Positions 22,477 to 64,000 of a DNA stretch of 64,000 bases are shown in pieces. Origin of the DNA: Eubacteriales bacterium. GTDB lineage: Bacteria > Bacillota > Clostridia > Oscillospirales > CAG-272. A model generated the notes under the pieces. That model was not told the origin of the DNA. It made no database searches and saw nothing but the letters and a program-made list of their open reading frames with translations. The stretch spans positions 4,941 through 68,940 of the forward strand of contig JAZNZC010000153.1 of the NCBI GenBank assembly GCA_045594745.1. Direction: 5' to 3'. The translations under genes were made by a program, and so were the position numbers. How positions within the stretch are numbered: position 1 is the stretch's first letter; every line of letters begins with the position of its first letter.

Positions 22477-24220
22477 CTTTTTTACCTGCCATAAAATCAA
22501 ATATCGCCTGTATATGTGCTGGCATCTGCAATCCAACTAAACTTCCATTAGCAATATCGTGGCTAATAGTAAGCATAACTTCTGCTTTTTGAGATTTCCA
22601 CTTGTCAGACAACTGGTCTTGTGTTAATCCTGTCCACCCAAATTGAGTTCCATATTTACTCTGCAATAAGGTATAATTGCTTCCAGTTTTTACAATTTCC
22701 GGTTCCAATGTGTAATTTTTTGTTGTTGTAACAAGAATTGATTGGCACGAATTATATTTCTCGTGATTCGCTTGTGCGGCGGGTTGATTATCATAATCTC
22801 TAACGATTCCTAAACGTTTGTGGCAATTACTGTTTGTTTTCTGCCATATTTCAATGATTTTTGTAAATCCTTTATGAAATGATAGAACATCAATATCACC
22901 GAGTGTGCTTTGAGAAGCTTGGTATGCCTTAATAAATAATTCTTCAGTTATACCTTCTACCAATATACAACGATGAGACAAGAACAATTTGTAGATATCG
23001 GTATTAGGATTTTTGGAAAGATAATTGCGTTCTTCATCATTAAGTTCTGTTGAAAGTGCATACGCTTCTCCTGCATCCAACACCACTACACTTTCCAAGG
23101 CGTGTTTATTTAAAAATTCTGTGCTATGGGAAGAAAAAATGAGCTGAACACTTTTGTTGTCTTTTGTCAAAGCATTAATAAAACTGCACATCAATCGAAT
23201 ATTATTGATGCACAAATGTGCTTCGGGCTCTTCCATAATCAAAACATTTATTACGGTATCACATTGTTTTTCTTTCCACGAATTTAACAACACGAGTAAT
23301 AATATTAAATTTCTATACCCCAATCCTTGTAATGACAAGCTTTCATCCGCGTACCCGAGTTTTACTCCATTTAAGATAGTTGACAACGGCGGCATATTGG
23401 GCAAAATGCTAATACTTGAAATAAAATCCTTTGCTCCAGGAATCGAACTATAATCCTGCCAATTGAGCACACTATCAACATCTCCGGCCTTTTTTACTTC
23501 GTCGAAAAAAGTTTGATATTGCTTTTCTATATGAACTAAATTTTCGTTGCTATATCGAGACTCTAATAGTTTTACAAGAGATTTATATCCAATCTTGCTG
23601 TTATCATATGAAAAACCATCTCTTTCTGCGGGGAGCATTGTATATTTAAAATATCTCAATACATCATATGCAACCTTCGCTTCTTTTTCAGGGACCACTA
23701 TTGAGTATGTGTACAAACTAATCGGTAGAAGATTACGCTTAACATCTGAAATATTTACAGATGAATCCGATAGAATCTCTTTTACAGATTCCAAAAGCTT
23801 AGACGGCATATCTACGGTAAAACGATATAATAGCCCATATTGAATATTGTTATTAGCTATTTTGAAAGCTATATCTTTTACATAATACAACTCATCCGTT
23901 TCAGGTGTAAAGTGAATTTCCACAGAAACAACAGGAATGCTTTTTATAAAATCATCTAACAAAAGGGAGCCTTCAACAATTTGATCTCGATGCGTTTCCA
24001 AATATTTAAAATACTCGTTTCTCGCTTTTGAATTGATGTCATCCCAGGTTAAATGTTTAGAAATCGTGTTATCCTCGGAGTAAAGTGGAAGAGACAATGC
24101 ACGCAATATATTGCTTTTACCACTATTGTTTTCTCCAATGAAAATAGTAGTTCCTTCAGATTCAAAAGATGTTCCCTCAATATTTCGATAATTTTTTATT
24201 GTGATTTCAGAAATCTTCAT
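22466..24220 (-). CDS. gajA: Gabija GajA, OLD-family ATPase-Toprim nuclease
   Basis: GENNSGKSN Walker A, LIMEEPEAHL Walker B/ABC-like, and a C-terminal Toprim (ILVEGITEE ... VRDYDN). About 584 aa from MKISEITIKNYRN with a GAGGG SD. Paired with a UvrD-like helicase. Confidence 0.8.
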   Translation of the reverse strand: MKISEITIKNYRNIEGTSFESEGTTIFIGENNSGKSNILRALSLPLYSEDNTISKHLTWDDINSKARNEYFKYLETHRDQIVEGSLLLDDFIKSIPVVSVEIHFTPETDELYYVKDIAFKIANNNIQYGLLYRFTVDMPSKLLESVKEILSDSSVNISDVKRNLLPISLYTYSIVVPEKEAKVAYDVLRYFKYTMLPAERDGFSYDNSKIGYKSLVKLLESRYSNENLVHIEKQYQTFFDEVKKAGDVDSVLNWQDYSSIPGAKDFISSISILPNMPPLSTILNGVKLGYADESLSLQGLGYRNLILLLVLLNSWKEKQCDTVINVLIMEEPEAHLCINNIRLMCSFINALTKDNKSVQLIFSSHSTEFLNKHALESVVVLDAGEAYALSTELNDEERNYLSKNPNTDIYKLFLSHRCILVEGITEELFIKAYQASQSTLGDIDVLSFHKGFTKIIEIWQKTNSNCHKRLGIVRDYDNQPAAQANHEKYNSCQSILVTTTKNYTLEPEIVKTGSNYTLLQSKYGTQFGWTGLTQDQLSDKWKSQKAEVMLTISHDIANGSLVGLQMPAHIQAIFDFMAGKKDDN

Positions 24221-24306
24221 AATTGCCCTCTGAGTTGTTATTCCAATTAGTCTGTTTTTTGCGGGAGAATATAATATTTTGTATTCTCCCACAAGTCAAT
24301 TGATTT

Positions 24307-27162: not shown

Positions 27163-29357
27163 CTGCTGTTCCTCCCTGCATTTATTCTAAAGTTATCGAG
27201 ATAATCTCGGTATAATTGATATGTTTTCTTACCTTCAAGAGCTTTTGTCATAGAAACAAATCCTGCCTCATAATCGGTAACAAGGTAAACAACCTCAATT
27301 TCGGGATGCTCGTCCAACTGATTCTTGAACTCTGCAAAAGCATTCTCGTTATTCAAAATTGCCATTTTGTTTTTAGGCAGAATGAGTATGTCAGGTATAT
27401 TTTTGTCAATCGTGGGACACTCACCGACTGCCCCCGCCTTCATCCACAAAGTAGATAACAGCTCTTTGAACTGCATACCAAGTGAAACCTTGGTTTTATC
27501 AAGAAATCCGAGTTTGAAGAAGACGGCATTTGCATGAAAGCCATCGGATCGTTTGATTTCGGCCAATTGGGGAAGTTTTTGTACTTCTTTTTTAATATAT
27601 ATTTTTTTTGAAGTGGGCTTTCCAGTCTTTTTAGAAACGATAGTATCCTCATCGTCTATTATATATTCTTCTTCGATAACACCATAATCGCCATCTAAGG
27701 GATTGCCGTTCACATCTTTGCCAAGAATACTGCAAACTGTCCGAGGCCATGTTACATATCGCGCTATACCCTTATTTTCCCATTCTTCGTCTCCTTGCTT
27801 AATACCACGTGCTTCAAATTCATTTTTTTCAGCTTCACTGATCTCATTGTTTGTTATCATTATACAACGACGTTTACCACCATCTTCCGCATTAAGAAGA
27901 TTAGTGGCGTGAAGTGTTGTACCCGAACCGGCAAAGAAATCAACAATCAAAGCATTGGGTTTGTTGGCGGTTGCATAATACAAACAATCTTTAACTGCAT
28001 ACAACGATTTTGGATAAGAAAATCTGTTTGGTGTAAGAATTGACTTTACAATGTTTGAGCCAAACCACTGAGCATCATGAGTGTGCTTGTTCCAATTCGT
28101 TGTTGGAGGGATTTCTTTGCTTTCATAATAAAATGCATTAACACTGCCATCATCGCAAATGTTTTTAATAAAGGCTTTTCCGGATTCAATGTCAGAAATT
28201 ATTCCTCCAGTTAGGTATGAGATAACATATTTCTGCGGTTTATTGGGAGTGTGTTTTCCAACTCTTATATATCCTTTATTTAAACGAGCGAGAAATTCTT
28301 CTTTCACGCATCCCCACATCATTTCCATCCCATTATCGCGAATTGGAAAAACTGCAGTACACCCAGCAGGAGCAACAACATCACACATTTTGTCCACTCC
28401 AAAAATAAGGGGATCTCCTACCGAATGGATCTTCTTTGTACTATCATCAACAAATACAGGATAGAACTGCTTTTTTGTTTTATTCCATGTGTTTGTTGGT
28501 CCAGATCTACGTAAAGTATCCCAAACCACTGGCGTATTTTGGCCTTCGCTTCCATCCAAAGCAATAGAAGCAGAACCTATTCTGACAAAGAACAAATATT
28601 CATCGGTTCGAGAAAACTCATATTTGCGTCCTGTACCTGCACGATTAATAACACTACTGACCATTTGAATATTTGCATATGAAAACATTTCTTCAAGCAA
28701 ACATCCAAGATGCAAATATTCTTTTTCATCAATTGTAACAATTAAAATAGAATCATAGGGGTTAAGCAAACGTTTGGCTATTTCTAACCGCTTTTGCATA
28801 AAAGATAACCATTTACTATGCTTATATTCATCATTTTCATCTACATATTTGTTATTATACTTCCAATCTGTTGCGCCAGAGTTATAAGGGGGATCTATAT
28901 AAATACAATCAACTTTACCCGCATAAAGATATTCGAGAAGCTGGAGCGCGTGATAATTATCCGCCTCAATAAGAGTATGCCACAGATCGCTATCGGGAGC
29001 ATTGCAAACACTATCCAACAGCTTGAGACAAGGATAGATTGCCTCGCCAAACTCGGCTGTAACAACCAGATCTTCAACGGGATATTCTATTGCTGTATTG
29101 CCGCTTTTCGGCATACACCAAGCCTTACCGTTCTCAATCTTTAATACCTTGAAGGTAGTGTTGACCGATCCAGACTTCAACGAAACGGTTGCCCCCTTCT
29201 TAACAGGAATGTCGTAAAGGGGAGTACATTCGGGCAAATGCTCCTCAAATACCAAACCGAATTTCTTCTGCTTGGCAAGCTTATTTGCCGCTTCCTGAAT
29301 CTGCGCACGAAGCTCGGGATTTTCTATTTTTGCAATCAATTCATTTAATGCTGCCAT
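27159..29357 (-). CDS. mod: Beta-class N6-adenine/N4-cytosine DNA methyltransferase, type III Mod-like
   Basis: IYIDPPYNSG (motif IV) precedes VDFFAGSGTT (motif I), which is the beta-class order typical of type III Mod. Translationally coupled to res. Confidence 0.85.
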   Translation of the reverse strand: MAALNELIAKIENPELRAQIQEAANKLAKQKKFGLVFEEHLPECTPLYDIPVKKGATVSLKSGSVNTTFKVLKIENGKAWCMPKSGNTAIEYPVEDLVVTAEFGEAIYPCLKLLDSVCNAPDSDLWHTLIEADNYHALQLLEYLYAGKVDCIYIDPPYNSGATDWKYNNKYVDENDEYKHSKWLSFMQKRLEIAKRLLNPYDSILIVTIDEKEYLHLGCLLEEMFSYANIQMVSSVINRAGTGRKYEFSRTDEYLFFVRIGSASIALDGSEGQNTPVVWDTLRRSGPTNTWNKTKKQFYPVFVDDSTKKIHSVGDPLIFGVDKMCDVVAPAGCTAVFPIRDNGMEMMWGCVKEEFLARLNKGYIRVGKHTPNKPQKYVISYLTGGIISDIESGKAFIKNICDDGSVNAFYYESKEIPPTTNWNKHTHDAQWFGSNIVKSILTPNRFSYPKSLYAVKDCLYYATANKPNALIVDFFAGSGTTLHATNLLNAEDGGKRRCIMITNNEISEAEKNEFEARGIKQGDEEWENKGIARYVTWPRTVCSILGKDVNGNPLDGDYGVIEEEYIIDDEDTIVSKKTGKPTSKKIYIKKEVQKLPQLAEIKRSDGFHANAVFFKLGFLDKTKVSLGMQFKELLSTLWMKAGAVGECPTIDKNIPDILILPKNKMAILNNENAFAEFKNQLDEHPEIEVVYLVTDYEAGFVSMTKALEGKKTYQLYRDYLDNFRINAGRNSR

Positions 29358-29652
29358 TTTTGTTTTCTCCGTTTCTCTTATCCACTAAAAATAGAAGCTG
29401 TTCGCCCAGAATATATCGAAGATCAATTTCAGTTATTTGATTTCGAGGTTTACTTACTGTTGTGGGCAACGAATTTACTTTCGCGTATATATCAGAATGA
29501 TTTCCATAATTTGATACAATTTGTCTGTTGGCAGAATCCATATCAAGCGGATTTTTCTGATACTCATTCCACGTATCCAATATATCTTTTTCCAACGGTG
29601 TAATCATCCGCTGACTTTTTAAAAATTCAATTAAAATACTTACTTTATCCAT
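29341..29652 (-). CDS. Hypothetical 103-aa protein, translationally linked to mod
   Basis: The ORF overlaps the mod start by 17 nt and lies 15 nt downstream of the ATPase gene. No motif recognised. Confidence 0.55.
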   Translation of the reverse strand: MDKVSILIEFLKSQRMITPLEKDILDTWNEYQKNPLDMDSANRQIVSNYGNHSDIYAKVNSLPTTVSKPRNQITEIDLRYILGEQLLFLVDKRNGENKNGSIK

Positions 29653-29667
29653 CTTATTTTCCCAAAC

Positions 29668-31053
29668 TCAAATCATTTTCTCATACTCAACCAGCGTTAC
29701 GTTACCCATTTCGGTTGTTTTGTCAATGCAGCCCTTGGTAAAGCCGGATTTGGCGAAGAGGTAGTAATGCACGTTCTTGTAGTGGAAGAGTTTGCTACGT
29801 TCAACGAGCAGATCGAGCACGCCGACGTCAACCTTTTCGTTTGTCCACTTGCACTCGCCAAAGAGGGCGGTGTTTTTATCGGCTTCGCCCATAATATCGA
29901 TCTCGGTCTGGGACTTAGATTTCGAATCGTTACCCCACCAACGTCCGAGAGAGGTAAACTCAATGGGACATTTGCCCGAGAGAAGCTGCTTCCAGAGATA
30001 CTGCTTGCAGATCTCCTCGAACACTCTGCCCATATACTCGGACAGATGCGGCTCGATGCGCTTATATGCGAGATCGGATGCGCCGCGCGCGATGATGGAA
30101 TTGTTTTCGGGCACGAAGCGATACCAGAAGCGGAACATATTATCCTCAACCGAATAGATCGACTTGCGGGATGCCTTTTCACCGTAGGGCGTTTCCTTTT
30201 GAACGATGCCGAGAGAGAGCAGATTTTTTAGATAGATAGAGCATACGTTGGTATCCTCGCCTACCTTGCTGGAAATCTCGGACATACGCGACGCACCCGT
30301 TGCAATAGCGGTGATGATCGCGTTATAGATCGCCGGCTCGCGCACCTCCTGCTTGAGCAGATTGGTCGTTTCCTCAAACAAGGGAGAGGTCGGGTTCAGA
30401 TAGGTATTCTTGATATTTTCCTCGATGCTGAGCTTATCGTCGATCTGCAAGAGGTATTGCGGAGTTCCGCCGACGATACCGTAAATGAGGGCTTTGTCCT
30501 CGCTGGAAGCGTTGGGGAAATAACGGCAGGTTTCCTCAAAATCGAAGGGGTTGATCTTCATCTGCGCCGTCTTTCTTCCGTAAAGAGGGGCTTTGTAGGA
30601 AAGCACGTAATCCTCCATAAAGGACATGGACGAGCCGCAAAGAATGAGCATCAGCTTGGAGGTATCCTTATATTTATCGATCAGAAGCTGGAGCGTGGAT
30701 GCAAGGCTCTTTGAGGAACGGGCAACGTAAGGATACTCGTCGATTGCAAGCACGATCCTCTCATTCTCAGCCATCTTGAAAACGTACTCCAAAGCCGCCT
30801 GGAATGAAGCGAAAGAGGTTTCAAGCGAGAACCCCGTACCGTATTCAAGTATGCTCTTTGAAAAGTTATCAAGATTTTGCTTGGCATTGCTCTCAACGCC
30901 CATAAAATATATCGCTTTTTTGTCACGAACAAACTCGTTGATCAGCGCCGTCTTACCGACACGGCGGCGACCGTAAATAACCGCAAATTCAAATTTATCC
31001 GAAGCGTACAGCCTATTCAAAGCCGTCAGCTCACGTTCTCTGCCAATAAACAT
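29668..31053 (-). CDS. ATP-binding protein: archaeal-type ATPase (ATPase_2-like) N-domain plus DUF234-type PD-(D/E)xK C-domain
   Basis: FIGRERELTALNRLY...VIYGRRRVGKTAL (Walker A), LAIDEYPY (Walker B), and C-terminal ...GRWWG...EIDIMGE...GECKW (D/ExK-like). Start placed at MFIGRE with an AGGAGG SD. Confidence 0.75.
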   Translation of the reverse strand: MFIGRERELTALNRLYASDKFEFAVIYGRRRVGKTALINEFVRDKKAIYFMGVESNAKQNLDNFSKSILEYGTGFSLETSFASFQAALEYVFKMAENERIVLAIDEYPYVARSSKSLASTLQLLIDKYKDTSKLMLILCGSSMSFMEDYVLSYKAPLYGRKTAQMKINPFDFEETCRYFPNASSEDKALIYGIVGGTPQYLLQIDDKLSIEENIKNTYLNPTSPLFEETTNLLKQEVREPAIYNAIITAIATGASRMSEISSKVGEDTNVCSIYLKNLLSLGIVQKETPYGEKASRKSIYSVEDNMFRFWYRFVPENNSIIARGASDLAYKRIEPHLSEYMGRVFEEICKQYLWKQLLSGKCPIEFTSLGRWWGNDSKSKSQTEIDIMGEADKNTALFGECKWTNEKVDVGVLDLLVERSKLFHYKNVHYYLFAKSGFTKGCIDKTTEMGNVTLVEYEKMI

Positions 31054-31153
31054 AAAAATATGCCTCCTTGTATCAGTTGACACTATTATAGCACACATTT
31101 TCAGTTTAGTCAAGTACGATTTGGTAAATTGTGATTATATATTTTTGAATTAC

Positions 31154-54453: not shown

Positions 54454-55185
54454 ATGTCCGGACATAGCAAATGGGCGAATATCAAGCACAAAAAAGAAAA
54501 GACCGATGCCGCAAGAGGTAAGATCTTTACCAAGATCGGCAAAGAGATCACCATCGCAGTCAAAGAGGGAGGCGGTGAGCCTGCTTCCAACTCCAAGCTG
54601 CGCGACCTGATCCAAAAGGCAAAAGCAAACAACGTTCCCAACGATAACATTGAGCGTTGCATCAAAAAGGCGCTCGGCGGCGGCGGTGAGAACTATGAGG
54701 AGGTATCCTACGAGGGTTACGGTCCCGCAGGTGTTGCTGTTATCGTTACTGCTACTACCGATAACCGCAACCGCACCGCAGGCAACGTACGCGCTTACTT
54801 CTCCAAATACCACGGCAACATGGGGCAGACCGGTTGCGTAGGCTATCTGTTCACAGATGTTGGTGAGATCGTTAACAACAACGAGGATGGCGACGTTGAC
54901 GAGGATAAATTGATGGAGCAAGCACTTGAGGCAGGTGCGGCAGACTTCAAAGCAGAGGGAGATGTTTTTATCATCACCACCGAGCCCGACGATGTTTATA
55001 ACATTCAAGAAGACCTCAAAGCCGCAGGATATGAGATTCTCTCGGCAGAAAAAACCAAGCAGGCATCCACCTCTGTTACGCTTGAGAGCGAAGATGACAT
55101 CAAGTTTATGAATCTTCTCATCGATAAGCTTGAAGAAGATGATGACGTTATGGATGTTTATCACAACTGGGAAAACTGCGATTGA
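54454..55185 (+). CDS. yebC: YebC/PmpR-family DNA-binding transcriptional regulator
   Basis: MSGHSKWANIKHKKEKTDAARGKIFTK... is the diagnostic N-terminus. Confidence 0.93.
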   Translation: MSGHSKWANIKHKKEKTDAARGKIFTKIGKEITIAVKEGGGEPASNSKLRDLIQKAKANNVPNDNIERCIKKALGGGGENYEEVSYEGYGPAGVAVIVTATTDNRNRTAGNVRAYFSKYHGNMGQTGCVGYLFTDVGEIVNNNEDGDVDEDKLMEQALEAGAADFKAEGDVFIITTEPDDVYNIQEDLKAAGYEILSAEKTKQASTSVTLESEDDIKFMNLLIDKLEEDDDVMDVYHNWENCD

Positions 55186-55213
55186 TTTTTTTGAAAAAAG
55201 TTTCAAAAAACTA

Positions 55214-55242
55214 TTGACAAACACTTCTTTGTGTGGTATACT
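55214..55242 (+). promoter_or_regulatory. Promoter of T-box unit 1
   Basis: TTGACA-17 nt-TATACT. Confidence 0.6.
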
Positions 55243-55249
55243 ACACGTA

Positions 55250-55520
55250 ATTTAGTAAAGGCTATGACGAAGAAGGTCGAGTAAGGGAGTCCACAGAGAG
55301 TCGGATAAGGTGTGAACCGATGACAAAATTACTCAAGACCCATCACTTCCGAGCCGGATGTTCGAAAGATATTTTATTAAGTAGAATTTCCCGTGATTGC
55401 TGCGTCAAGGCATAGGAATTGTTTGATTCCAAGAGTGGCGACTGTGTCGCAATTTGAGTGGTACCGCGAGTGTATTTTCACACCCGTCTCAAAGTTTGAG
55501 ACGGGTGTTTTATATTTTTG
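55250..55520 (+). promoter_or_regulatory. T-box riboswitch leader 1 (putative Ile, AUC specifier)
   Basis: Stem I has a GA/K-turn (AUGAC...CGA), an AGAGAG bulge and a GGUGUGA distal loop. The specifier-loop 3' side reads CAUCA directly before the CUUC helix. The T-box sequence AATTTGAGTGGTACCGCG is at 55451-55468. The terminator CACCCGTCTC-aaagtt-GAGACGGGTG plus T-run is at 55481-55511. Confidence 0.85.
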
Positions 55521-55538: not shown

Positions 55539-57806
55539 ATGTCTACTTCATCATCCAACACTTTGCAGGAGGTCGCTCTGCGAATTCGCGAAATGCGCGA
55601 GATCTTTGATTTCAGTGTTGAAACGATGGCAGAAAAGACCGAAGTATCGGTAGAGGAATATTGCAGATATGAAAGCGGAGAGTTGGATTTTCCGTTCACC
55701 TTCATTCACAAATGTGCTCTTGCTTTTGGAATTGGTATGACCGATTTGCTCGAAGGTCGCAGCGCACATCTTTCGTCTTACACGGTCACCCGACGTGGGC
55801 AAGGACAACAGACCGCAAAGGAGGAAGGCATTGAGATTTCTAACCTTGCTCCTATGTTCCGCAAAAAGCTGGCTGAGCCTTATTGGGTTCACTACGAATA
55901 TAATCCCGATCTGCAAAATCGTCCTATTCACCTCACAAAGCACTCAGGTCAAGAGTTCGATATGGTGCTCAAGGGCAAGCTCAAGGTACAGATCGGTGAG
56001 AATGTCGAATACCTTAGTGAGGGCGATAGCATCTATTACAACAGCTCCACACCCCACGGTATGATCGCGATTGACGGTGAGGATTGTCTCTTTGTTGCAG
56101 TTGTTATGTCCGGTGAGGATGAGAAAGAGGATGTTATCAGAGACACACTCATTCCTATGTGTGCACCGCAAAAAGAACTTGTATGCGATCACTTTATTTC
56201 CACGGTCGAGGACGAAAACGGACTTTTGCAATCCATCGACTTCCACAACGACGATCAATTCAACTTTGGATTTGACGTTGTTGATGCTATCGCGCAAAAG
56301 GATCCCGAAAAGCTTGCGATGATCCATATTGCAAACGATAAGACCGAGCGTCGCTTTACCTTTAATGATATGAAGCGCAAATCAGCGCAATGTGCCAACT
56401 ATTTCAAATCCTTAGGCATCAAAAAAGGTGACCGTGTTATGCTTGTTCTCAAGCGTCACTATCAATTCTGGTTTGCTATTATTGGTCTGCATAAGCTTGG
56501 TGCGATCGTCATTCCCGCAACCAATCAGCTGCAGGCACACGATTTTGAATATCGCTTTGAAGCAGCAGATATCAGTGCGATCATTTGTACAGCGGATGGT
56601 GATGTGGCGCATCAAGTCGATCTTGCACAAGAGAAGTGCCCAATGCTGAAAACAAAGGTGCTTGTCGGCGGCAAGCGCGAAGGATGGAAGGATTTTGACG
56701 AGGAATTTGAACTCTTTAGCGCACATTTCTATCGCACCGAAGAGACTCCTTGCGGCGACGATCTGATGCTGATGTTCTTCACATCCGGCACCACAGGATA
56801 TCCCAAGATCGCGGCGCACACCTATAAATATCCTCTTGGTCACTTTGTTACCGCAAAGCACTGGCACGGTGTTAGTGACGGCAGCCTGCACTTTACCATT
56901 TCCGAAACGGGATGGGGAAAGGCTCTGTGGGGCAAGCTCTACGGTCAATGGCTGTGTGAGGGTGCAGTCTTTACCTACGATTTCGACCGCTTTGATGCGT
57001 CGGAGATCCTTCCGATGTTTGCAAAATACAACATTACAACCTTCTGTGCACCTCCCACGATGCTCCGCATGATGATCAAGCAGGATATCTCCAAATACGA
57101 TCTTTCTTCCATCAAGCATATGACAACCGCAGGTGAGGCACTCAATCCCGAGGTTTACCGTCAGTTTGAAAAGGCTACGGGACTTCAGATCATGGAAGGC
57201 TTTGGTCAGACCGAATTGACGCTTACCATTGCTAACCTGATCGGCGGCACGCACAAGCTCGGCTCTATGGGTAAGCCCATTCCGCTTTACGATGTTGACA
57301 TCGTCGATCCCGACGGCAATCCTGTGGCAGATGGCGAGACGGGAGAGATCATCGTTCGCACCGATAAGAAAGTACCTTGCGGACTCTTTGCAGGCTACTA
57401 TCGAAACGAAGAAAAGCCCGCCGAGGTTTGGCACGACGGTATGTACCACACAGGAGATACTGCGTGGAGAGATGAGGACGGCTTCTATTGGTACGTTGGT
57501 CGCGTAGATGACGTTATCAAGTCCTCGGGCTATCGCATTGGTCCCTTTGAAATCGAAAGCGTTATTATGGAGCTGCCTTACGTCCTTGAATGTGGCGTTT
57601 CTGCCGCTCCCGATGAGGTCAGTGGTCAGGTCGTTAAGGCATCTATCGTCCTTACAAAGGGAACTGAACCTACTGAGGAACTCAAAAAAGAAATTCAAAA
57701 CTACGTTAAGGAGCATACGGCACCTTACAAATATCCGCGTATCGTTGTTTTCCGCGATGAGCTTCCCAAAACCATCAGCGGAAAGATCCAGCGCAACAAG
57801 CTTTGA
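55539..57806 (+). CDS. Fusion protein: XRE-type HTH + cupin + AMP-forming acyl-CoA synthetase (copy 1)
   Basis: N-terminal HTH (SVETMAEKTEVSVEEYCRYESGE), cupin (GQEFDMVLKGKL...GDSIYYNSSTPHGM), then an ANL-family enzyme (MFFTSGTTGYPK, YHTGD, SSGYRIGPFEIES, PKTISGKIQRNKL). 755 aa. AAAGGAGG SD. Confidence 0.85.
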   Translation: MSTSSSNTLQEVALRIREMREIFDFSVETMAEKTEVSVEEYCRYESGELDFPFTFIHKCALAFGIGMTDLLEGRSAHLSSYTVTRRGQGQQTAKEEGIEISNLAPMFRKKLAEPYWVHYEYNPDLQNRPIHLTKHSGQEFDMVLKGKLKVQIGENVEYLSEGDSIYYNSSTPHGMIAIDGEDCLFVAVVMSGEDEKEDVIRDTLIPMCAPQKELVCDHFISTVEDENGLLQSIDFHNDDQFNFGFDVVDAIAQKDPEKLAMIHIANDKTERRFTFNDMKRKSAQCANYFKSLGIKKGDRVMLVLKRHYQFWFAIIGLHKLGAIVIPATNQLQAHDFEYRFEAADISAIICTADGDVAHQVDLAQEKCPMLKTKVLVGGKREGWKDFDEEFELFSAHFYRTEETPCGDDLMLMFFTSGTTGYPKIAAHTYKYPLGHFVTAKHWHGVSDGSLHFTISETGWGKALWGKLYGQWLCEGAVFTYDFDRFDASEILPMFAKYNITTFCAPPTMLRMMIKQDISKYDLSSIKHMTTAGEALNPEVYRQFEKATGLQIMEGFGQTELTLTIANLIGGTHKLGSMGKPIPLYDVDIVDPDGNPVADGETGEIIVRTDKKVPCGLFAGYYRNEEKPAEVWHDGMYHTGDTAWRDEDGFYWYVGRVDDVIKSSGYRIGPFEIESVIMELPYVLECGVSAAPDEVSGQVVKASIVLTKGTEPTEELKKEIQNYVKEHTAPYKYPRIVVFRDELPKTISGKIQRNKL

Positions 57807-57849
57807 TAAAACATTCTTATAATAAATGTTGGAAAAATTATAAAAGCTC

Positions 57850-57878
57850 TTGACAAATAACCAAAAGTGTGATACAAT
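57850..57878 (+). promoter_or_regulatory. Promoter of T-box unit 2
   Basis: TTGACA-17 nt-(TGA)TACAAT. Confidence 0.6.
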
Positions 57879-57884
57879 CTTAAT

Positions 57885-58165
57885 AATTTAGAAAGGCACT
57901 GACGAAGAGGGTGCCGACAAAGCGGTCTTTGCAGAGAAATGGCGGACGGTGCGAGCCATAGACCTCGGTCGGTATTTGTAGCTTCCGAGCCGAAGGGAAG
58001 AACGAGCGAAAGCTCCATTAGACCCCTTCCGTGATTGCTGCGTCAACGCATAGGAGCTGTCAGGCTCCAAGAGTGGCGACTATGTCGCAATTTGAGTGGT
58101 ACCGCGGGTGTTATTGCACTCGTCTCAAGGTTATTTTCACTTTGGGACGAGTGCATTTCTTGTTC
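57885..58165 (+). promoter_or_regulatory. T-box riboswitch leader 2 (putative Val, GUA specifier)
   Basis: Same architecture as leader 1, with compensatory changes in stem III. The specifier-loop 3' side reads UUUGUAG before CUUC. The T-box AATTTGAGTGGTACCGCG is at 58089-58106. The terminator GCACTCGTC...GACGAGTGC is at 58116-58154, followed by a T-rich tract. Confidence 0.85.
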
Positions 58166-58191
58166 CCGAGTAAGAAACGGAGAGAGAAAGA

Positions 58192-60480
58192 ATGAAACAA
58201 ATGAGCGGATTGGATTTCAAGATCCAGGAAATGGCCGAGCGTATTCGTGAGTTGCGTGAGATCACGCGATATACTCCCGAGGAGATGGCGGCAAAGACCG
58301 ACGTAACAACCGAAGAATACCTTGCGTGTGAGAACGGTCAGAGCGACCTTAACTTTGCGTTTATCTACCGTTGTGCACTGGCTTTTGGCGTAAACGTCAC
58401 CGATATTATCGACGGTGTCAGCCCCAAGCTCAAGTCTTACACGGTCACGCGCAACGGCGCGGGACAGCGTATCGAGCAAGCGCACGGAATGACCTACTTC
58501 AATCTGGCGTATGCGTTCCAAAACCGTATTGCAGAGCCTTTGTACGTTCGCAGTGAGTACAACGAAGAAGCACAACACAAGGATATTGAATTGACCACCC
58601 ACGCGGGACAAGAGATCGATATCGTTATTTCGGGTAGTCTGATGGTTCAGGTCGGCTCTCACAAGGAGATCCTGCGTGCAGGTGACAGCATCTACTACGA
58701 TAGTAGCGCGCCTCACGGTATGATCGCCGTTGACGGTCAGGATTGCGAGTTTTATGCAATCGTTCTCAATCCCACGGGCGAACCTATCCCCGAGTTGACT
58801 CCCGCAAAGCTTGTCAAGGGAACAGCTATTCCAACAAAGGATACCAAGGAGCGCATCTATCAAAAGTTCATCGACGTTGTCGAGAACGAAAACGGTACTC
58901 CTACATCCATTCAATTCAAAAATACCGAGAACTTCAATTTTGCATTCGATCTTGTCGATGCACTTGCCGATAAAGAGCCGCAAAAGCTTGCAATGCTCCA
59001 TATTTCGCAAGATAAGACCGAGCGCAGATTTACTTTTAAGGATATCAAAAAAGCATCGGCACAATGTGCTAACTATTTCAAGTCACTTGGCATCAAAAAA
59101 GGCGACCGCGTTATGCTCGTTCTCAAGCGTCATTATCAGTTCTGGTTTGCGATGCTTGGTCTGAATAAGCTCGGTGCCATTGCTATTCCTGCTCCCAATC
59201 AGCTCCAGGAGCACGACTTTGAATATCGCTTCAAGGCAGCAGGGATCAGCACGATCCTTTGTACCTCGGACGGAGATACCGCACATCAAATTGAGCTTGC
59301 TGCTGCGACTTGTCCTGAGCTCAAGAACTTCTTGATCGTAAACGGTAAGCGCAAGGGCTGGAGAAGCTTCGATGAAGAATATCCGCTTTACAGCTCTCAT
59401 TACAACCGTGGCGAGGATGCTCCCGGCGGCAATGATCTGATGCTGATGTTCTTTACATCGGGAACAACGGGATACCCCAAGATAGCGGCGCACAATTATA
59501 AATATGCACTCGGACATTTCCACACCGCAAAATATTGGCACAACGCCGATCCCAACGGATTGCACTTTACTATTTCGGATACGGGCTGGGCAAAGGCAAT
59601 GTGGGGCAAGCTCTACGGCCAATGGCTGTGCGAAGCCGCAACCTTTGTTTACGATTTCGACCGCTTTGATGCATCTGAGATCCTGCCCATGTTTGCAAAA
59701 TACAACATCACGACCTTCTGCGCACCTCCCACGATGCTGCGTATGATGATCAAGCAGGATATCTCCAAATACGATCTTTCCTCGGTCAAGCATATGACAA
59801 CCGCAGGCGAGGCGCTTAACCCCGAGGTTTATCGTCAGTTTGAAAAGGCAACCGGACTCCAAATTCTTGAGGGCTTTGGCCAAACTGAGAGCACAATGAT
59901 CATTGGTAATCTTATAGGTGCTTCGCATAAGATCGGTTCGATGGGTAAGCCCGCACCGATCTACGATGTAGAGCTCGTCGATGTCGACGGAAATCCCGTA
60001 GCAGTTGGTGAAAGTGGTGAGATCGTTGTCAACGTCAAAAACGGAGCACCTTGCGGACTCTTTACCGGTTACTACCGCGACGAAGAAAAGACCGCCGAGG
60101 TTTGGCACGATGGCTACTATCACACCGGCGACGTTGCTTGGCGTGATGAGGACGGCTTCTATTGGTACGTCGGACGCGCTGATGACGTTATCAAATCTTC
60201 GGGTTACCGCATCGGTCCTTTTGAGATCGAAAGCGTTATTATGGAACTGCCTTACGTTCTTGAGTGCGGTGTTTCTGCCGCTCCCGACGAAGTCAGAGGA
60301 CAGATCGTAAAGGCTTCTATCGTTCTTACAAAGGGAACCGAGCCAACCGAAGAACTCAAAAAAGAAATTCAGAATTACGTTAAGGAGCACACAGCTCCCT
60401 ATAAATACCCCAGACTTGTGGTATTCCGTGATGAACTTCCCAAAACCACAAGTGGAAAAATTCAGAGGAACAAATTATGA
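58192..60480 (+). CDS. Fusion protein: XRE-type HTH + cupin + AMP-forming acyl-CoA synthetase (copy 2)
   Basis: 762-aa paralogue of 55539-57806 with the same three-domain order. The C-terminal two thirds are very similar at both protein and DNA level. Confidence 0.85.
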   Translation: MKQMSGLDFKIQEMAERIRELREITRYTPEEMAAKTDVTTEEYLACENGQSDLNFAFIYRCALAFGVNVTDIIDGVSPKLKSYTVTRNGAGQRIEQAHGMTYFNLAYAFQNRIAEPLYVRSEYNEEAQHKDIELTTHAGQEIDIVISGSLMVQVGSHKEILRAGDSIYYDSSAPHGMIAVDGQDCEFYAIVLNPTGEPIPELTPAKLVKGTAIPTKDTKERIYQKFIDVVENENGTPTSIQFKNTENFNFAFDLVDALADKEPQKLAMLHISQDKTERRFTFKDIKKASAQCANYFKSLGIKKGDRVMLVLKRHYQFWFAMLGLNKLGAIAIPAPNQLQEHDFEYRFKAAGISTILCTSDGDTAHQIELAAATCPELKNFLIVNGKRKGWRSFDEEYPLYSSHYNRGEDAPGGNDLMLMFFTSGTTGYPKIAAHNYKYALGHFHTAKYWHNADPNGLHFTISDTGWAKAMWGKLYGQWLCEAATFVYDFDRFDASEILPMFAKYNITTFCAPPTMLRMMIKQDISKYDLSSVKHMTTAGEALNPEVYRQFEKATGLQILEGFGQTESTMIIGNLIGASHKIGSMGKPAPIYDVELVDVDGNPVAVGESGEIVVNVKNGAPCGLFTGYYRDEEKTAEVWHDGYYHTGDVAWRDEDGFYWYVGRADDVIKSSGYRIGPFEIESVIMELPYVLECGVSAAPDEVRGQIVKASIVLTKGTEPTEELKKEIQNYVKEHTAPYKYPRLVVFRDELPKTTSGKIQRNKL

Positions 60481-61139
60481 TGAACAAACGCGTTTTGTTG
60501 CTGTGCGGACATTACGGTAGCGGCAAAACCAACATCGCCGTCAATCTGGCACAAGCGATCAAGAGGGAATACTCAACGGTGACTCTTGCCGACCTTGACA
60601 TCGTCAATCCTTATTTTCGTTCTAAGGACAGTGCTATTGAACTGGAAGAGGCGGGGATTCGACTCATTTGCTCCAATTATGCAAACAGTAACGTTGATAT
60701 TCCCGCGCTTCCGTCAGATCTCTACGCACTCACCGATGACCGCCGTATGAAAGCCATCATCGATGTGGGCGGCGACGATCGCGGTGCATTGGTTCTTGGC
60801 AGACTTGCTCCCGCAATTCTGTCAGAAAACGATTATGAGATGCTGATGGTGATCAACTGCTACCGACCGCTCACAAGAGATGCCGCATCCACGCTTGAGG
60901 TGATGCGCGAGATCGAGTATGCCGGCGGTATTCGCTTTACGGCATTGGTCAACAACTCCAATCTCGGAGCAGAGACCACCGCAGAGGATGTACTCGCATC
61001 GATGCGCTATGCCGATGAAGTGGCGGCTATGTCCAACCTGCCCGTCGTTATGACAACAGCAGACGAAAGATTGCAGAGTGAATTACAGGATAAGATTCCA
61101 AATCTTTTCCCACTCAAGCTGCAAAAAAAGATACAATAA
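60477..61139 (+). CDS. P-loop NTPase (MinD/ParA/CooC-like, deviant Walker A)
   Basis: LLLCGHYGSGKTNIAVNLA at the N-terminus. ATGA overlap with the upstream ligase gene. 220 aa. Confidence 0.6.
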   Translation: MMNKRVLLLCGHYGSGKTNIAVNLAQAIKREYSTVTLADLDIVNPYFRSKDSAIELEEAGIRLICSNYANSNVDIPALPSDLYALTDDRRMKAIIDVGGDDRGALVLGRLAPAILSENDYEMLMVINCYRPLTRDAASTLEVMREIEYAGGIRFTALVNNSNLGAETTAEDVLASMRYADEVAAMSNLPVVMTTADERLQSELQDKIPNLFPLKLQKKIQ

Positions 61140-61176: not shown

Positions 61177-61383
61177 ATGGCAAAATTAACGTTTTTGACC
61201 GATAATTGCAAGGGCTGCGGTCTGTGTGTGGACGCTTGCCCCAAAAAGGTGCTTCGTTTGGCACCCGATAAGATCAACAAAAAAGGACATCACCCCGTAG
61301 AGGCAGAAAACCCCGATGCTTGCATTGGCTGTGCATTCTGCGCTACGATGTGTCCCGATTGCATTATTACTGTTGAGAGGTGA
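61177..61383 (+). CDS. 4Fe-4S ferredoxin-type protein (delta subunit of 2-oxoacid:ferredoxin oxidoreductase)
   Basis: Two CxxCxxCxxxCP motifs (CKGCGLCVDACP, CIGCAFCATMCP). 68 aa from MAKLTF with an AAGGAG SD. Confidence 0.85.
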   Translation: MAKLTFLTDNCKGCGLCVDACPKKVLRLAPDKINKKGHHPVEAENPDACIGCAFCATMCPDCIITVER

Positions 61384-61388
61384 TCAAA

Positions 61389-62456
61389 ATGGCAGATAAA
61401 GTATTGATGAAAGGCAACGAAGCCATTGCCGAGGCCGCAATTCACGCAGGCTGCAGACATTATTTTGGCTATCCCATCACCCCTCAAACCGAGATCGCGG
61501 CTTATATGGCAAAAAAGATGCCCAAGATCGGCGGCACTTTTCTGCAAGCTGAAAGTGAGATCGCGGCGATCAATATGGTCTACGGTGTGGCATCCGCAGG
61601 ACACCGCGTTATGACCTCTTCCTCAAGCCCCGGAATCGCACTCAAGAGCGAAGGCCTTTCTTACCTCGCAGGCTCGGATCTGCCGTCTTTGGTCGTTAAC
61701 GTTCAACGCGGTGGTCCCGGACTTGGCGGTATTCAGCCCAGCCAATCTGACTATTTCCAAGCAACCAAGGCAGGCGGTCACGGCGACTTCCGTATGATCG
61801 TTCTCGCTCCCGCATCCGTTCAGGAGATGGCAGAGCTCACCGTCAAGGGCTTTGAACTTGCCGATACATACCGCATGACCGCTATGATCCTTGCCGACGG
61901 TACGATGGGGCAGATGATGGAGCCTGTGGCACTTGACGACCTTGTTGTCAAGCCTGCACCTGCAAAGCCTTGGGCGACTACCGGCACCAAGATGCAACGC
62001 GCTCACAATATTACTAATTCGCTCTCTCTCGTTCCCGAAGAGCTCGAAAAGCTGAATTTCGCTCGCTATGAGCGTTACCGCACCATTGAGGAAAACGAGG
62101 TCATGTACGAGGAATATATGATGGACGATGCAGAGATCTGTATTGCCGCTTTCGGTATTGCCGCACGTGTTTCCAAAAACGCGATCAATGAGGCGAGAAA
62201 AGCGGGCATTAAGGTTGGTATGATCCGTCCCATCACGCTCTGGCCCTTCCCGAAGGAAGTATTCCGTCGCGCCGCAGATAAGGTCAACAGCTTTATTTCT
62301 GTTGAGCTTTCTATGGGGCAGATGATCGAGGACGTTCGCCTTGCAACCGAATGCAAAAAGCCTGTAATGCTTTGCAATCGTGCAGGCGGTATGATCCCGT
62401 CTCCCGATCAAGTACTCGAAGCAATTAAGAACGCCGCGAAAGGAGGAGAGAACTAA
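61389..62456 (+). CDS. vorB: 2-oxoacid:ferredoxin oxidoreductase alpha subunit (VorB-like, 3-methyl-2-oxobutanoate type)
   Basis: MADKVLMKGNEAIAEAAIHAGCRHYFGYPITPQTEI is the typical N-terminus of the VOR/KOR alpha subunit. Substrate assignment comes from context only. Confidence 0.8.
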   Translation: MADKVLMKGNEAIAEAAIHAGCRHYFGYPITPQTEIAAYMAKKMPKIGGTFLQAESEIAAINMVYGVASAGHRVMTSSSSPGIALKSEGLSYLAGSDLPSLVVNVQRGGPGLGGIQPSQSDYFQATKAGGHGDFRMIVLAPASVQEMAELTVKGFELADTYRMTAMILADGTMGQMMEPVALDDLVVKPAPAKPWATTGTKMQRAHNITNSLSLVPEELEKLNFARYERYRTIEENEVMYEEYMMDDAEICIAAFGIAARVSKNAINEARKAGIKVGMIRPITLWPFPKEVFRRAADKVNSFISVELSMGQMIEDVRLATECKKPVMLCNRAGGMIPSPDQVLEAIKNAAKGGEN

Positions 62457-63214
62457 TGGTTGTATTTAAGAAACCCCACGCTCTGACCGATGCACCCTTC
62501 CATTATTGCCCCGGTTGCACCCACGGTATCATTCACCGTTTGGTAGCCGAGGTCATTGACGAGCTCGGCATTGAGGGCAGAACCATCGGTATTGCTCCCG
62601 TTGGTTGCTCGGTTATGGCTTATAACTACTTTAACTGTGATATGATCGAGGCCGCACACGGTCGCGCACCTGCTGTTGCTACCGGTGTTAAGCGCGCCAA
62701 CCCCGAGGAACATATCGTTTTCACCTACCAAGGCGACGGTGACCTCGCATCTATCGGCATGGCAGAAACCGTTCACGCCGCCGCAAGAAACGAAAATATC
62801 ACCATTATCTTTATTAACAATGCAATTTACGGTATGACCGGCGGTCAGATGGCGCCCACATCGCTTCCCGGACAGGTTACACAGACCTCTCCTTACGGTC
62901 GCGACACCAACCACTGCGGGTTCCCGATTCGTGTATGCGAAATGCTCTCCGAGCTTGAGGGCCCCGAATATCTCGCCCGTGTTACCGTTAATAACGTAAA
63001 GAATGTAAATAACGCTAAAAAAGCGATCAAAAAGGCATTCCAAAATCAGATCGATGGCAAAGGCTTCTCTTTGGTCGAAGTACTTTCCACCTGTCCTACC
63101 AACTGGGGTATGACTCCTCAGAAGGCTCTGCAATGGATCGATGAGAAAATGATCCCTTATTATCCGCTTGGCGTTTATAAGGATAGAAGTGGGGAGGAGG
63201 AATCGGCAAAATGA
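62456..63214 (+). CDS. 2-oxoacid:ferredoxin oxidoreductase beta subunit (TPP-binding)
   Basis: HYCPGCTHG..., GDGD... and IFINNAIYGMTGGQ TPP-binding motifs. Start/stop overlaps the alpha subunit gene. Confidence 0.88.
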   Translation: MVVFKKPHALTDAPFHYCPGCTHGIIHRLVAEVIDELGIEGRTIGIAPVGCSVMAYNYFNCDMIEAAHGRAPAVATGVKRANPEEHIVFTYQGDGDLASIGMAETVHAAARNENITIIFINNAIYGMTGGQMAPTSLPGQVTQTSPYGRDTNHCGFPIRVCEMLSELEGPEYLARVTVNNVKNVNNAKKAIKKAFQNQIDGKGFSLVEVLSTCPTNWGMTPQKALQWIDEKMIPYYPLGVYKDRSGEEESAK

Positions 63215-63744
63215 GTACAAAGCAAATGCTGTTTTCCGGCTTTGGCGGACAGGGAATTCTGTTTGCCGGTAAATTTATCGCTTACAAAGGACTGATGGAG
63301 GAAAAGCAAGTCAGTTGGCTTCCGTCCTACGGTCCCGAAATGCGCGGTGGTACTGCAAGTTGTAGCGTCATCGTCAGCGACGAGCCTGTTGGCTCCCCCA
63401 TTGTATCCAACCCCGATATCCTGATCGCTATGAACCTGCCGTCTCTTGATAAATTCGAGTCGACTGTTGTTCCCGGCGGAATGATTTTTGCTGACTCCAC
63501 TCTTATCGAGCGCAAGGTTGAACGCGATGATGTTAAGGTGTTCTACATTCCCGCGACACAACTCGCAAGCGACAATGGCACGCCCACACTCGCAAACATG
63601 ATCATCGTTGGTAAGGTGCTCAAGGAAATTGGCGACTACAACGAAGAAAACATCACCGCTGCACTTAAAAAAGTTATTTCTGCAAAGCGCGCGGATATGC
63701 TTGATATCAACCTTGGCGCTATGCGTCTTGGTGCCCAAAACTAA
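63211..63744 (+). CDS. 2-oxoacid:ferredoxin oxidoreductase gamma subunit
   Basis: [14 protein letters not shown]...YGPEMRGG is the gamma (POR/KOR) subunit family. 4-nt overlap with the beta subunit gene. Confidence 0.88.
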
Positions 63745-63769: not shown

Positions 63770-64000
63770 ATGTTGAATATTTCCATTACAAAATGTGATG
63801 CTCCCAAGGCAAAGCCGGATGCTTCTACCCTGGGCTTTGGTAAAATTTTTACCGACCATATGTTCATTGTTGACTATTCTCACGAAAAGGGTTGGTACAA
63901 TGCGCGCATCGTTCCGTTTGCAAACATTTCTCTCCATCCCGCATCCACCGTTCTGCATTACGGCTCTGAGATTTTCGAGGGTCTGAAGGCTTATCGCCGC
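63770..64000 (+). CDS. ilvE: Branched-chain amino acid aminotransferase (N-terminal part; continues beyond the window)
   Basis: Not in the ORF track because it has no stop in the window. Manual translation gives MLNISITKCDAPKAKPDASTLGFGKIFTDHMFIVDY...HYGSEIFEGLKAYR, a class IV BCAT signature. Confidence 0.85.
   Translation, partial: MLNISITKCDAPKAKPDASTLGFGKIFTDHMFIVDYSHEKGWYNARIVPFANISLHPASTVLHYGSEIFEGLKAYRR

Follow-up and report, generated by a model that had tools for sequence, protein, structure and literature searches.

The closest characterized relatives of the acyl-CoA ligases described here are MacsMa of Methanosarcina acetivorans, an enzyme that prefers 2-methylbutyrate (PMC10455477), and MbcS, which as purified enzyme selects 2-methylbutyrate and isobutyrate with Km values < 10 µM, barely uses isovalerate, and in S. 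aureus supplies lipid synthesis (PMC10026030). We analyzed a stretch of 64,000 nt from an Eubacteriales bacterium of the Oscillospirales lineage CAG-272 (contig JAZNZC010000153.1 of assembly GCA_045594745.1, positions 4,941–68,940 of the forward strand; hereafter the window), in which two tandem genes, copy 1 and copy 2, each encode such a ligase fused behind an XRE-like helix-turn-helix (HTH) and a cupin domain. Each gene stands behind its own T-box leader. The ligase halves match MacsMa (PDB 3ETC) over the whole ligase, have MbcS as their best NCBIfam model and carry all ANL core motifs; 3ETC aligns from its residue 53, so the HTH-cupin module is absent from the 3ETC chain. 2-Methylbutyrate and isobutyrate are the carbon skeletons of Ile and Val, and these substrates of MacsMa and MbcS match the Ile and Val T-boxes of the window. 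Whereas MbcS serves lipid synthesis, the window locus is tied to these T-boxes, to a 2-oxoacid:ferredoxin oxidoreductase of the ketoisovalerate type (VOR) and to the aminotransferase gene ilvE. Judging from this gene content, the operon as a whole probably makes Ile and Val from environmental branched short-chain acids.

A T-box turns its genes on when the cognate tRNA lacks its amino acid, a sign that this amino acid is in short supply. With described T-boxes (RF00230), the two window leaders share the Stem I specifier loop, the AGAGA and GGUG motifs, the UGGU-bearing T-box sequence and a terminator that overlaps the antiterminator region. Unlike usual T-boxes, they stand in series in one cluster, with different specifiers and each before a paralogous enzyme, and their target is a salvage ligase instead of an aminoacyl-tRNA synthetase, a transporter or a de novo ilv gene. 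The predicted chemistry, from acid to acyl-CoA to 2-oxoacid to amino acid, is also that of rumen bacteria, which, according to Allison and co-workers, reportedly carboxylate branched-chain volatile fatty acids reductively; methanogens, too, use VOR anabolically. The work on the rumen pathway is physiology and biochemistry. In the searchable literature we found no description of a salvage ligase as T-box target, of a T-box-controlled cluster with paralogous Ile and Val ligases, or of a link between the reductive-carboxylation route and these genes or T-boxes. Nor did we find the fusion or the operon described there; an earlier prediction is possible (Vitreschak et al. 2008).

For the N-terminal module, two groups of proteins come closest. 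XRE-cupin factors (PuuR, ErfA, PsdR, PauR; structure 1Y9Q) have the same two-domain layout and fold, and where the module is encoded by a gene of its own, it adjoins an enzyme gene, like the XRE-cupin ‘local functional units’ (PMC7901475). The enzymes HppE, HEPD, methylphosphonate synthase (MPnS) and Psf4 likewise join an XRE-like alpha domain to a following cupin, with an aligned His/Glu/His triad, and the alpha domain of HppE is also acidic (counted from the profile alignment). These enzymes perform phosphonate chemistry in antibiotic pathways of aerobes, whereas the module is the partner of an acyl-CoA ligase in apparent anaerobes; the annotated neighbors of the fused genes, in the window and in the related loci, include no phosphonate genes, and membership of the module in the HppE-like phosphonate enzymes is unlikely. 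BirA, PutA and NadR, which combine an HTH with an adenylate-forming or metabolic enzyme in one chain, offer an analogy only, and BirA pairs a winged HTH with a class II synthetase-like domain, folds that are unrelated to the window proteins.

We first consider the leaders. A permissive Rfam scan of the 64-kb window yielded two T-boxes (leader 1, 86.1 bits, E = 2.9e-17; leader 2, 69.4 bits, E = 5.6e-13) and no other match. Their hairpins are the two best terminator-like hairpins in a 10-kb scan, and the promoters before them, each scoring 11/12 with an extended −10 box, are the joint best of that scan. No tRNA genes lie within the window. From the at least 586 species genomes that encode a relative of the fused protein, we took 80 related genomic loci and extracted the leader of every copy, parsing the specifiers by fuzzy anchoring on the conserved 3′ flank and with a stricter structural parser. 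A T-box core was found in 134 of 147 related leaders, and eight orthologous leaders exceed the RF00230 gathering score, with 94–121 bits. At the specifier position, 70 of 72 parsed copy-1 leaders carry ATC, and all 56 parsed copy-2 leaders carry a valine codon (GTA in 50, GTC in 6). The frame in which the specifier is read follows from this comparison: the adjoining bases change from leader to leader, and the Val codons differ only at the third position, by synonymous changes. An independent metagenome sample of fused and split forms contributed 32 leaders with a T-box core, of which 29 were readable; these show only ATC or GTA, and no Leu or other specifier codon occurs among them. Judged by these codons, expression of copy 1 responds to tRNA-Ile and that of copy 2 to tRNA-Val. 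The UGGU of the T-box bulge is, we assume, compatible with a discriminator A. The promoter layout (TTGACA, 17 nt, extended −10) is kept in 67 copy-1 and 57 copy-2 orthologous leaders. Directly 5′ of the copy-1 −35 box, at 55150–55213 in the window and in ~60 loci, lie A/T-rich tracts (e.g. TTTTTGAAAAAAGTTTCAAAAAA) that resemble UP elements in sequence.

Both fused open reading frames (ORFs) are intact, with no internal stops, and their proteins are 70% identical. Pfam matches in both copies comprise HTH_19 (33.8 bits in copy 2, above the cutoff of 30.2; 22.1 bits in copy 1, below it), Cupin_2 (43 bits in each), AMP-binding (E = 2.6e-66 in copy 1, 8.8e-62 in copy 2) and AMP-binding_C (E = 8.4e-21 and 4.2e-21); the HTH_3 and HTH_31 models likewise match the N-terminal module. 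The best 120 database relatives of the fused protein are all 726–757 aa long, with a query coverage of 100% in 116; Cupin_2 and both AMP-binding families occur in all 120 and an HTH family in 80. Because these relatives share length and domain set, the HTH-cupin-ligase fusion is, as judged by sequence comparison, genuine and not an assembly artefact, a missed stop or a frameshift.

An earlier note on this DNA, made from its letters without database searches, had described two proteins of roughly 760 aa with an HTH, a cupin and a complete ANL ligase, and had named a missed stop or frameshift, neither visible in the letters, as a finding that would overturn its reading. The domain searches bear the layout out in both copies, and the relatives of near-uniform length rule the artefact out; the survey that the note had suggested of how widespread the fusion is gave the at least 586 species genomes mentioned above. 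Its head-to-tail repeat of promoter, T-box and gene agrees with the promoter scan, the RF00230 matches and the ORFs, and its proposal of control by tRNA charging gains support from those matches and from the conserved Ile and Val specifiers. Overstated were the ‘long near-identical DNA stretches’ in the ligase halves: the two units are 68% identical overall, with 95% in the best 60-nt window and no exact run longer than 38 nt. The N-terminal halves are indeed more diverged than the ligase halves (44–60% versus 71–88% identity between paralogs). Sub-functionalisation after duplication, also proposed there, fits the different conserved specifiers and the distribution of fixed differences given below. 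What the note missed are the differing specifiers, the downstream VOR and ilvE genes, and the existence of a split-gene form.

A recent duplication was considered and rejected, as each paralog has its own orthologues in ~57 other genomes. Because the gene order is conserved and each copy groups with its own orthologues, we regard the two genes as an ancient paralogous pair, syntenic in dozens of gut and rumen Clostridia on the evidence of these comparisons. Across the 80 loci, the first copy is 71–96% identical to copy 1 of the window, and complete second copies are ~63–70% identical to it; within its own group, each paralog is conserved at 66–89% and its N-terminal module at 66–76%. Eight loci have a single copy, and the six of these with a readable leader all show an Ile-type T-box. 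Between the two paralog groups we counted 13 fixed differences, of which 11 lie at aa 19–115 (M19L, P52N, H57Y, K58R, L71I, A76P, E95A, I98M, I100Y, K110R, Y115L), one in the linker and one in the 510-residue ligase. When synonymous codons were compared between 55539–60480 of the window and 57 other genomes, the identity of same-genome copies exceeded that of cross-genome copies by 0.11 in the HTH region and by 0.25 at the ligase C-terminus. The baseline of this excess reflects shared codon usage; the additional similarity towards the 3′ end suggests occasional gene conversion, which may keep the ligase halves alike and the sensor halves distinct. In the window itself the effect is modest.

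Two related loci deserve mention here. Erysipelotrichaceae bacterium NK3D112 (L059, JNJQ01000009.1), which appears to be a cultured isolate, carries the whole locus, with two fused ligases, the P-loop gene, VOR and a T-box of 120.9 bits. In locus L089 (2111–7978), the A3 motif in the second protein of a tandem fused pair (P0162, 758 aa) has degenerated to SYSYGMAKP and the A10 lysine is missing, so that this protein may be a catalytically dead sensor copy; this pair is followed by a class I/II aminotransferase gene and not by VOR.

The order fusion, fusion, P-loop gene, ferredoxin, VOR is kept in most of the 80 loci (Table 1). VOR is identified by the Pfam families POR_N, PFOR_II, TPP_enzyme_C and POR, and its alpha subunit passes the cutoff of NF005507, the model for VorB (3-methyl-2-oxobutanoate). 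The last gene, ilvE, leaves the window at its end; its translation reads MLNISITK...FTDHMF...YGSEIFEGLKAYRR. In five of the seven loci with enough downstream sequence (L016, L044, L053, L060, L072), ilvE also follows the VOR gamma gene, and the aminotransferases of L016 and L060 reach 481 bits with NF009897 (cutoff 307). Almost every related locus has the P-loop NTPase gene between its ligase and VOR genes. The product of this gene has a sub-cutoff CbiA/ParA-like Pfam match (24.5 bits), with no NCBIfam match and no sequence relative in PDB; it may help to mature the oxidoreductase or assist it in some other way. The 10-kb scan found no terminator-like site between copy 2 and VOR/ilvE and none 3′ of copy 1. 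Transcripts from promoter 1 must traverse both T-boxes, and in the single-copy loci the whole set sits behind an Ile T-box. In one of the latter (L073, 6459–7856), ilvE after the VOR gamma gene is replaced by a LeuA-like gene of the 2-isopropylmalate synthase family, which scores under the equivalog cutoffs; this arrangement hints at a link between salvaged 2-oxoisovalerate and leucine synthesis.

Table 1 Features of the tandem fused-ligase locus. Positions are those of the window; residue ranges refer to copy 1.
Feature	Position	Strand	Details
Promoter 1	55214–55242	+	TTGACA, 17-nt spacer, TG-extended TATACT
T-box leader 1, isoleucine-specific	55255–55519	+	RF00230 match 55255–55494
Leader 1 specifier AUC	55342–55344	+	next base A55345
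Leader 1 T-box motif	55451–55468	+	AATTTGAGTGGTACCGCG
Leader 1 terminator hairpin and U-run	55480–55508	+	fold z = −4.1
Copy 1	55539–57806	+	755 aa; XRE-like HTH, cupin, linker, AMP-forming acyl-CoA ligase
Copy 1 XRE-like HTH	55563–55757	+	aa 9–73
Copy 1 cupin	55806–56108	+	aa ~90–190
Copy 1 linker			aa 191–245; low-confidence
Copy 1 ligase	56274–57803	+	aa 246–755; Macs/MbcS-type, AMP-forming
Promoter 2	57850–57878	+	TTGACA, 17-nt spacer, TG-extended TACAAT
T-box leader 2, valine-specific	57890–58165	+	RF00230 match 57890–58130
Leader 2 specifier GUA	57978–57980	+	next base G57981
Leader 2 T-box motif	58089–58106	+	AATTTGAGTGGTACCGCG
Leader 2 terminator hairpin and U-run	58115–58155	+	fold z = −4.8
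Copy 2	58192–60480	+	762 aa; four-domain architecture like copy 1
P-loop NTPase	60477–61139	+	220 aa; ATGA overlap with the copy 2 stop; Walker A GHYGSGKT
2x[4Fe-4S] ferredoxin, delta subunit of the oxidoreductase	61177–61383	+	Pfam Fer4 families; ORF called mechanically from 61078, ATG at 61177 inferred from the translation
2-Oxoacid:ferredoxin oxidoreductase, VOR type	61380–63744	+	overlapping start/stop codons
VOR alpha	61380–62456	+	NCBIfam VorB NF005507, 542.5 bits (cutoff 399)
VOR beta	62456–63214	+	
VOR gamma	63211–63744	+	
ilvE start, branched-chain amino-acid aminotransferase	63770–64000	+	leaves the window end

The ligase half matches 3ETC with E = 2e-184, both copies retain intact A3 (TSGTTGYPK) and A10 (SGKIQR) motifs, and the best NCBIfam model is MbcS (NF047394; 435.5 and 433.9 bits). 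Because the relatives MacsMa and MbcS are selective for branched acids, and because the T-box link is exclusively to Ile and Val, we predict that copy 1 is a 2-methylbutyrate-CoA ligase and copy 2 an isobutyrate-CoA ligase. In the proposed scheme, uncharged tRNA-Ile would permit transcription through T-box 1 (AUC) into copy 1, and uncharged tRNA-Val would do the same through T-box 2 (GUA) for copy 2 and the genes behind it. The ligase halves would then convert 2-methylbutyrate (copy 1) and isobutyrate (copy 2) with ATP to their acyl-CoAs, the ferredoxin-dependent VOR would add CO2 by reductive carboxylation, giving 2-oxo-3-methylvalerate and 2-oxoisovalerate, and IlvE would transaminate these 2-oxoacids to Ile and Val. 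To the observed architecture, conserved specifiers, synteny and family assignments, this scheme adds the predicted substrates, the predicted direction of VOR and the pairing of each copy with an acid of its own. Three points argue for the biosynthetic direction: AMP-forming ligases work in the direction of acyl-CoA, the T-boxes imply induction by uncharged tRNA, and ilvE is linked to the cluster.

Several observations weigh against this scheme. Both copies score ~435 bits with MbcS, far below its equivalog cutoff of 850 bits, so that the substrate specificity is extrapolated. Both window T-boxes lie under the Rfam gathering score of 93 bits, and at the gathering threshold Rfam gives zero matches in the 64-kb window. 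For a cell short of Ile but not of Val the arrangement is awkward, because the VOR genes and ilvE come only after the Val T-box. Finally, a single difference in the ligase is fixed between the paralogs (G460 in copy 1, Ala in copy 2), and the two ligases may therefore share one substrate range.

What the N-terminal module contributes was approached through its partners. A search with aa 1–230 returned 2027 relatives, both fused proteins of ~760 aa and many stand-alone proteins of ~185 aa, the latter 33–45% identical to the module. In a Methanocella archaeon, in Hydrogenoanaerobacterium and in an Acutalibacteraceae metagenome-assembled genome, the stand-alone gene lies 3–48 nt 5′ of a same-strand gene for a ~550-aa ligase that is 50–59% identical to the window ligase halves. 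The metagenome sample shows the same picture: such a ligase gene comes next after 39 of 44 stand-alone genes, at a gap of −51 to +109 nt, and the ligases neighboring stand-alone genes are 44–60% identical to the window ligase halves. In many split pairs the stop and start codons overlap. In this sample, a T-box core precedes 13 of the 45 split forms and 18 of the 29 fused ones. Because the stand-alone module gene directly precedes the same type of ligase, the fusion is best described, from these gene neighborhoods, as the joining of a conserved two-gene pair, in which the module is an old and dedicated partner of the ligase family.

A phmmer search of the N-terminal module against PDB gave zero matches. 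A profile of the module matched HppE (1ZZ6/4J1X, E = 3.2e-12) over profile positions 9–182, i.e. both sub-domains, as well as 1Y9Q (E = 2.1e-11) and MPnS. The AlphaFold (AF2) model of the N-terminal part is confident (predicted local distance difference test, pLDDT, 86.7), and a Foldseek search with it returned 1Y9Q (E = 1.2e-13) and HppE (E = 1.7e-13). In the HppE match (template modelling score, TM, ~0.46; ~19% identity), the domains agree and their relative orientation differs. Psf4, MPnS and HEPD also match by profile or fold over both sub-domains. With 1Y9Q and HppE tied, the fold search on this model does not separate a regulator from an enzyme. The full-length AlphaFold model is poor (mean pLDDT 62; pTM, the TM score predicted for the whole chain, 0.50), and the packing of module and ligase is therefore not readable.

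The sequence of the HTH segment itself points away from DNA. Canonical XRE proteins contact DNA with helix 3 and the following loop through Lys/Arg or polar residues. In the window copies, the HTH segment has a net charge of −8 and −7, compared with +2 in the XRE-cupin repressor PuuR, and in 60 stand-alone relatives the mean is −7.5 (range −12 to −3). Helix 3 starts acidic, reading SVEEY or TTEEY, and Asp50 in the next loop is invariant; the positions of helix 3 are variable, and the most conserved stretch of the HTH is formed by helices 4–5. By eye, we found no shared palindrome in 124 aligned T-box promoters, and none among 30 non-T-box promoters, which come from very diverse lineages. A short palindrome near promoter 1 of the window is not kept in sequence in the related loci. 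The HTH segment is thus, by its residues, probably not a DNA binder, and the earlier note’s ‘DNA-binding domain on a metabolic enzyme’, with autoregulation and a trigger enzyme as consequences, finds no support, given the acidic HTH and the operator that was not found.

A part of the evidence nevertheless runs counter to this view, and it is the evidence that a working XRE-cupin repressor would leave. The fused protein would in that case be a trigger enzyme: it would bind an operator near its own promoter, be released from it by a small molecule, either through the cupin or through the ligase, as in BirA with its acyl-adenylate, and so add autoregulation on top of the T-box. The HTH_19, HTH_3 and HTH_31 models do match, HTH_19 above its Pfam cutoff in copy 2, and the HTH is under purifying selection. 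The best match by fold, 1Y9Q, carries an HTH_3 regulator annotation and served as the template for ErfA, a real XRE-cupin repressor; proteins of this kind repress neighboring enzyme genes and are transferred horizontally together with them (PMC7901475). The split form has that very layout, 32 of the 45 split pairs are without a T-box and so need other regulation, and PuuR shares the His/Glu/His positions of the module’s cupin. The promoter spacers of copy 1 also show a weak excess of inverted repeats (mean arm 3.20 versus 2.96 nt, z about 3). To set against this there are, besides the charge of the segment, its acidic and variable helix 3, the invariant Asp50 and the missing palindrome, two further points. 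Unlike the XRE-cupin factors, the module is often fused to the ligase gene or overlaps it by stop and start codons, and it occurs in at least one archaeon; such overlaps and recurrent fusion imply equimolar amounts of module and ligase, as is typical of protein partners. Moreover, HppE-type enzymes, whose XRE-like domain does not bind DNA, match equally well. We consider a working repressor unlikely on balance.

We lean, with some reservation, towards a module that binds a ligand or metal and acts as a partner on the ligase protein, for instance in feedback or substrate sensing that is specific to each paralog. A more far-reaching version of this idea, which we put forward only tentatively, would make the module a new class of regulatory domain for adenylate-forming ligases, in which an acidic pseudo-HTH and a metal-dependent cupin pocket would read product or substrate and gate a promiscuous ligase post-translationally. 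The paralog-specific residues at aa 76–115 would set the branch that each copy serves, and the partnership, split or fused, would be ancient in bacteria and in at least one methanogen-order archaeon. Equally tentative are the ligands of the pocket under the pseudo-HTH proposal, which could be Ile versus Val, their 2-oxoacids, or branched acids. Branched acids, which the earlier note had already listed among possible ligands, fit MacsMa and MbcS as the closest characterized enzymes.

It is improbable that the cupin module is itself catalytic, for example by isomerizing or epimerizing the acid, its CoA ester or the 2-oxoacid in a metal-dependent reaction, or by a similar conversion; the fusion would then unite two enzymes in one chain, with no sensor. 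Such a role would agree with the HppE, Psf4, MPnS and HEPD matches across both sub-domains, with the fusion or tight co-transcription of module and ligase, and with H135, E139 and H173, which are invariant in 62 sequences and align with the HppE metal ligands. The regulator PuuR has the same triad, however, and we dropped the triad as evidence for an enzyme on this ground. The proposed pathway needs no further chemical step, and the identity to HppE is only ~19%. As the carriers are apparently gut and rumen anaerobes and a methanogen-order archaeon, O2-dependent chemistry of the HppE kind is presumably unlikely in them. An epimerase would be useful only for the chiral 2-methylbutyrate, yet the Val copy retains the module as well.

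Least probable of all is an operon that does not serve amino-acid synthesis, as in oxidative catabolism of Ile and Val or the supply of acyl-CoA primers for branched-chain fatty acids: although the reactions of VOR are reversible, IlvE is bidirectional and the closest named family, MbcS, feeds lipid synthesis (PMC10026030), a catabolic route should not be switched on by a T-box at amino-acid scarcity, an AMP-forming ligase consumes ATP to make acyl-CoA and harvests no energy, and VOR and ilvE in the same transcription unit would be superfluous for lipid priming.

Some further features lie outside this argument. In ~10 loci (L059, 3097–5577; L035, L049, L054, L057, L065, L070, L074, L078, L079), a ~825-aa fusion of AP_endonuc_2 (a xylose-isomerase-like TIM barrel) with AMP-binding is encoded directly 5′ of copy 1. 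We considered this gene as a third, Leu-specific member of the set and rejected it, as it is a different fusion with 24% identity to the window ligase and without a T-box core 5′ of it; it is a further case of an ANL ligase with an added N-terminal domain. On the minus strand of the window, 22466–31113 encodes an AAA_15 ATPase, a ResIII helicase, an N6/N4 DNA methylase and an ATPase_2/DUF234 protein; the cluster resembles a type III restriction-modification or defence island. The flanks of related loci contain a thiamine pyrophosphate (TPP) riboswitch, a glycine riboswitch and 6S RNA (L005, 1431–1550; L009, 1700–1781; L025, 4809–4997), all unrelated to the fused ligases.

In conclusion, the kinds of component assembled here (T-box, Macs/MbcS ligase, VOR, XRE-cupin) are already known, and the accessory module is uncharacterized. 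The family is very abundant, and the annotation of its members goes no further than ‘cupin domain-containing’ or ‘XRE family regulator’; its HTH is probably no DNA binder and the module probably mis-annotated, which is a caution for the automated annotation of regulons. The paralogous pair offers a clean natural case of sub-functionalisation, in which riboswitch specifier and protein sensor module appear to have diverged together while the catalytic core stayed nearly unchanged. Many fiber-degrading Clostridia of rumen and gut require branched-chain volatile fatty acids, a requirement that has been known since the 1960s and is used in ruminant feeding. No gene-level account of it was found in the searchable literature; with Ile and Val T-boxes, two ligases, VOR and IlvE, the locus described here would provide a concrete gene set for this requirement.

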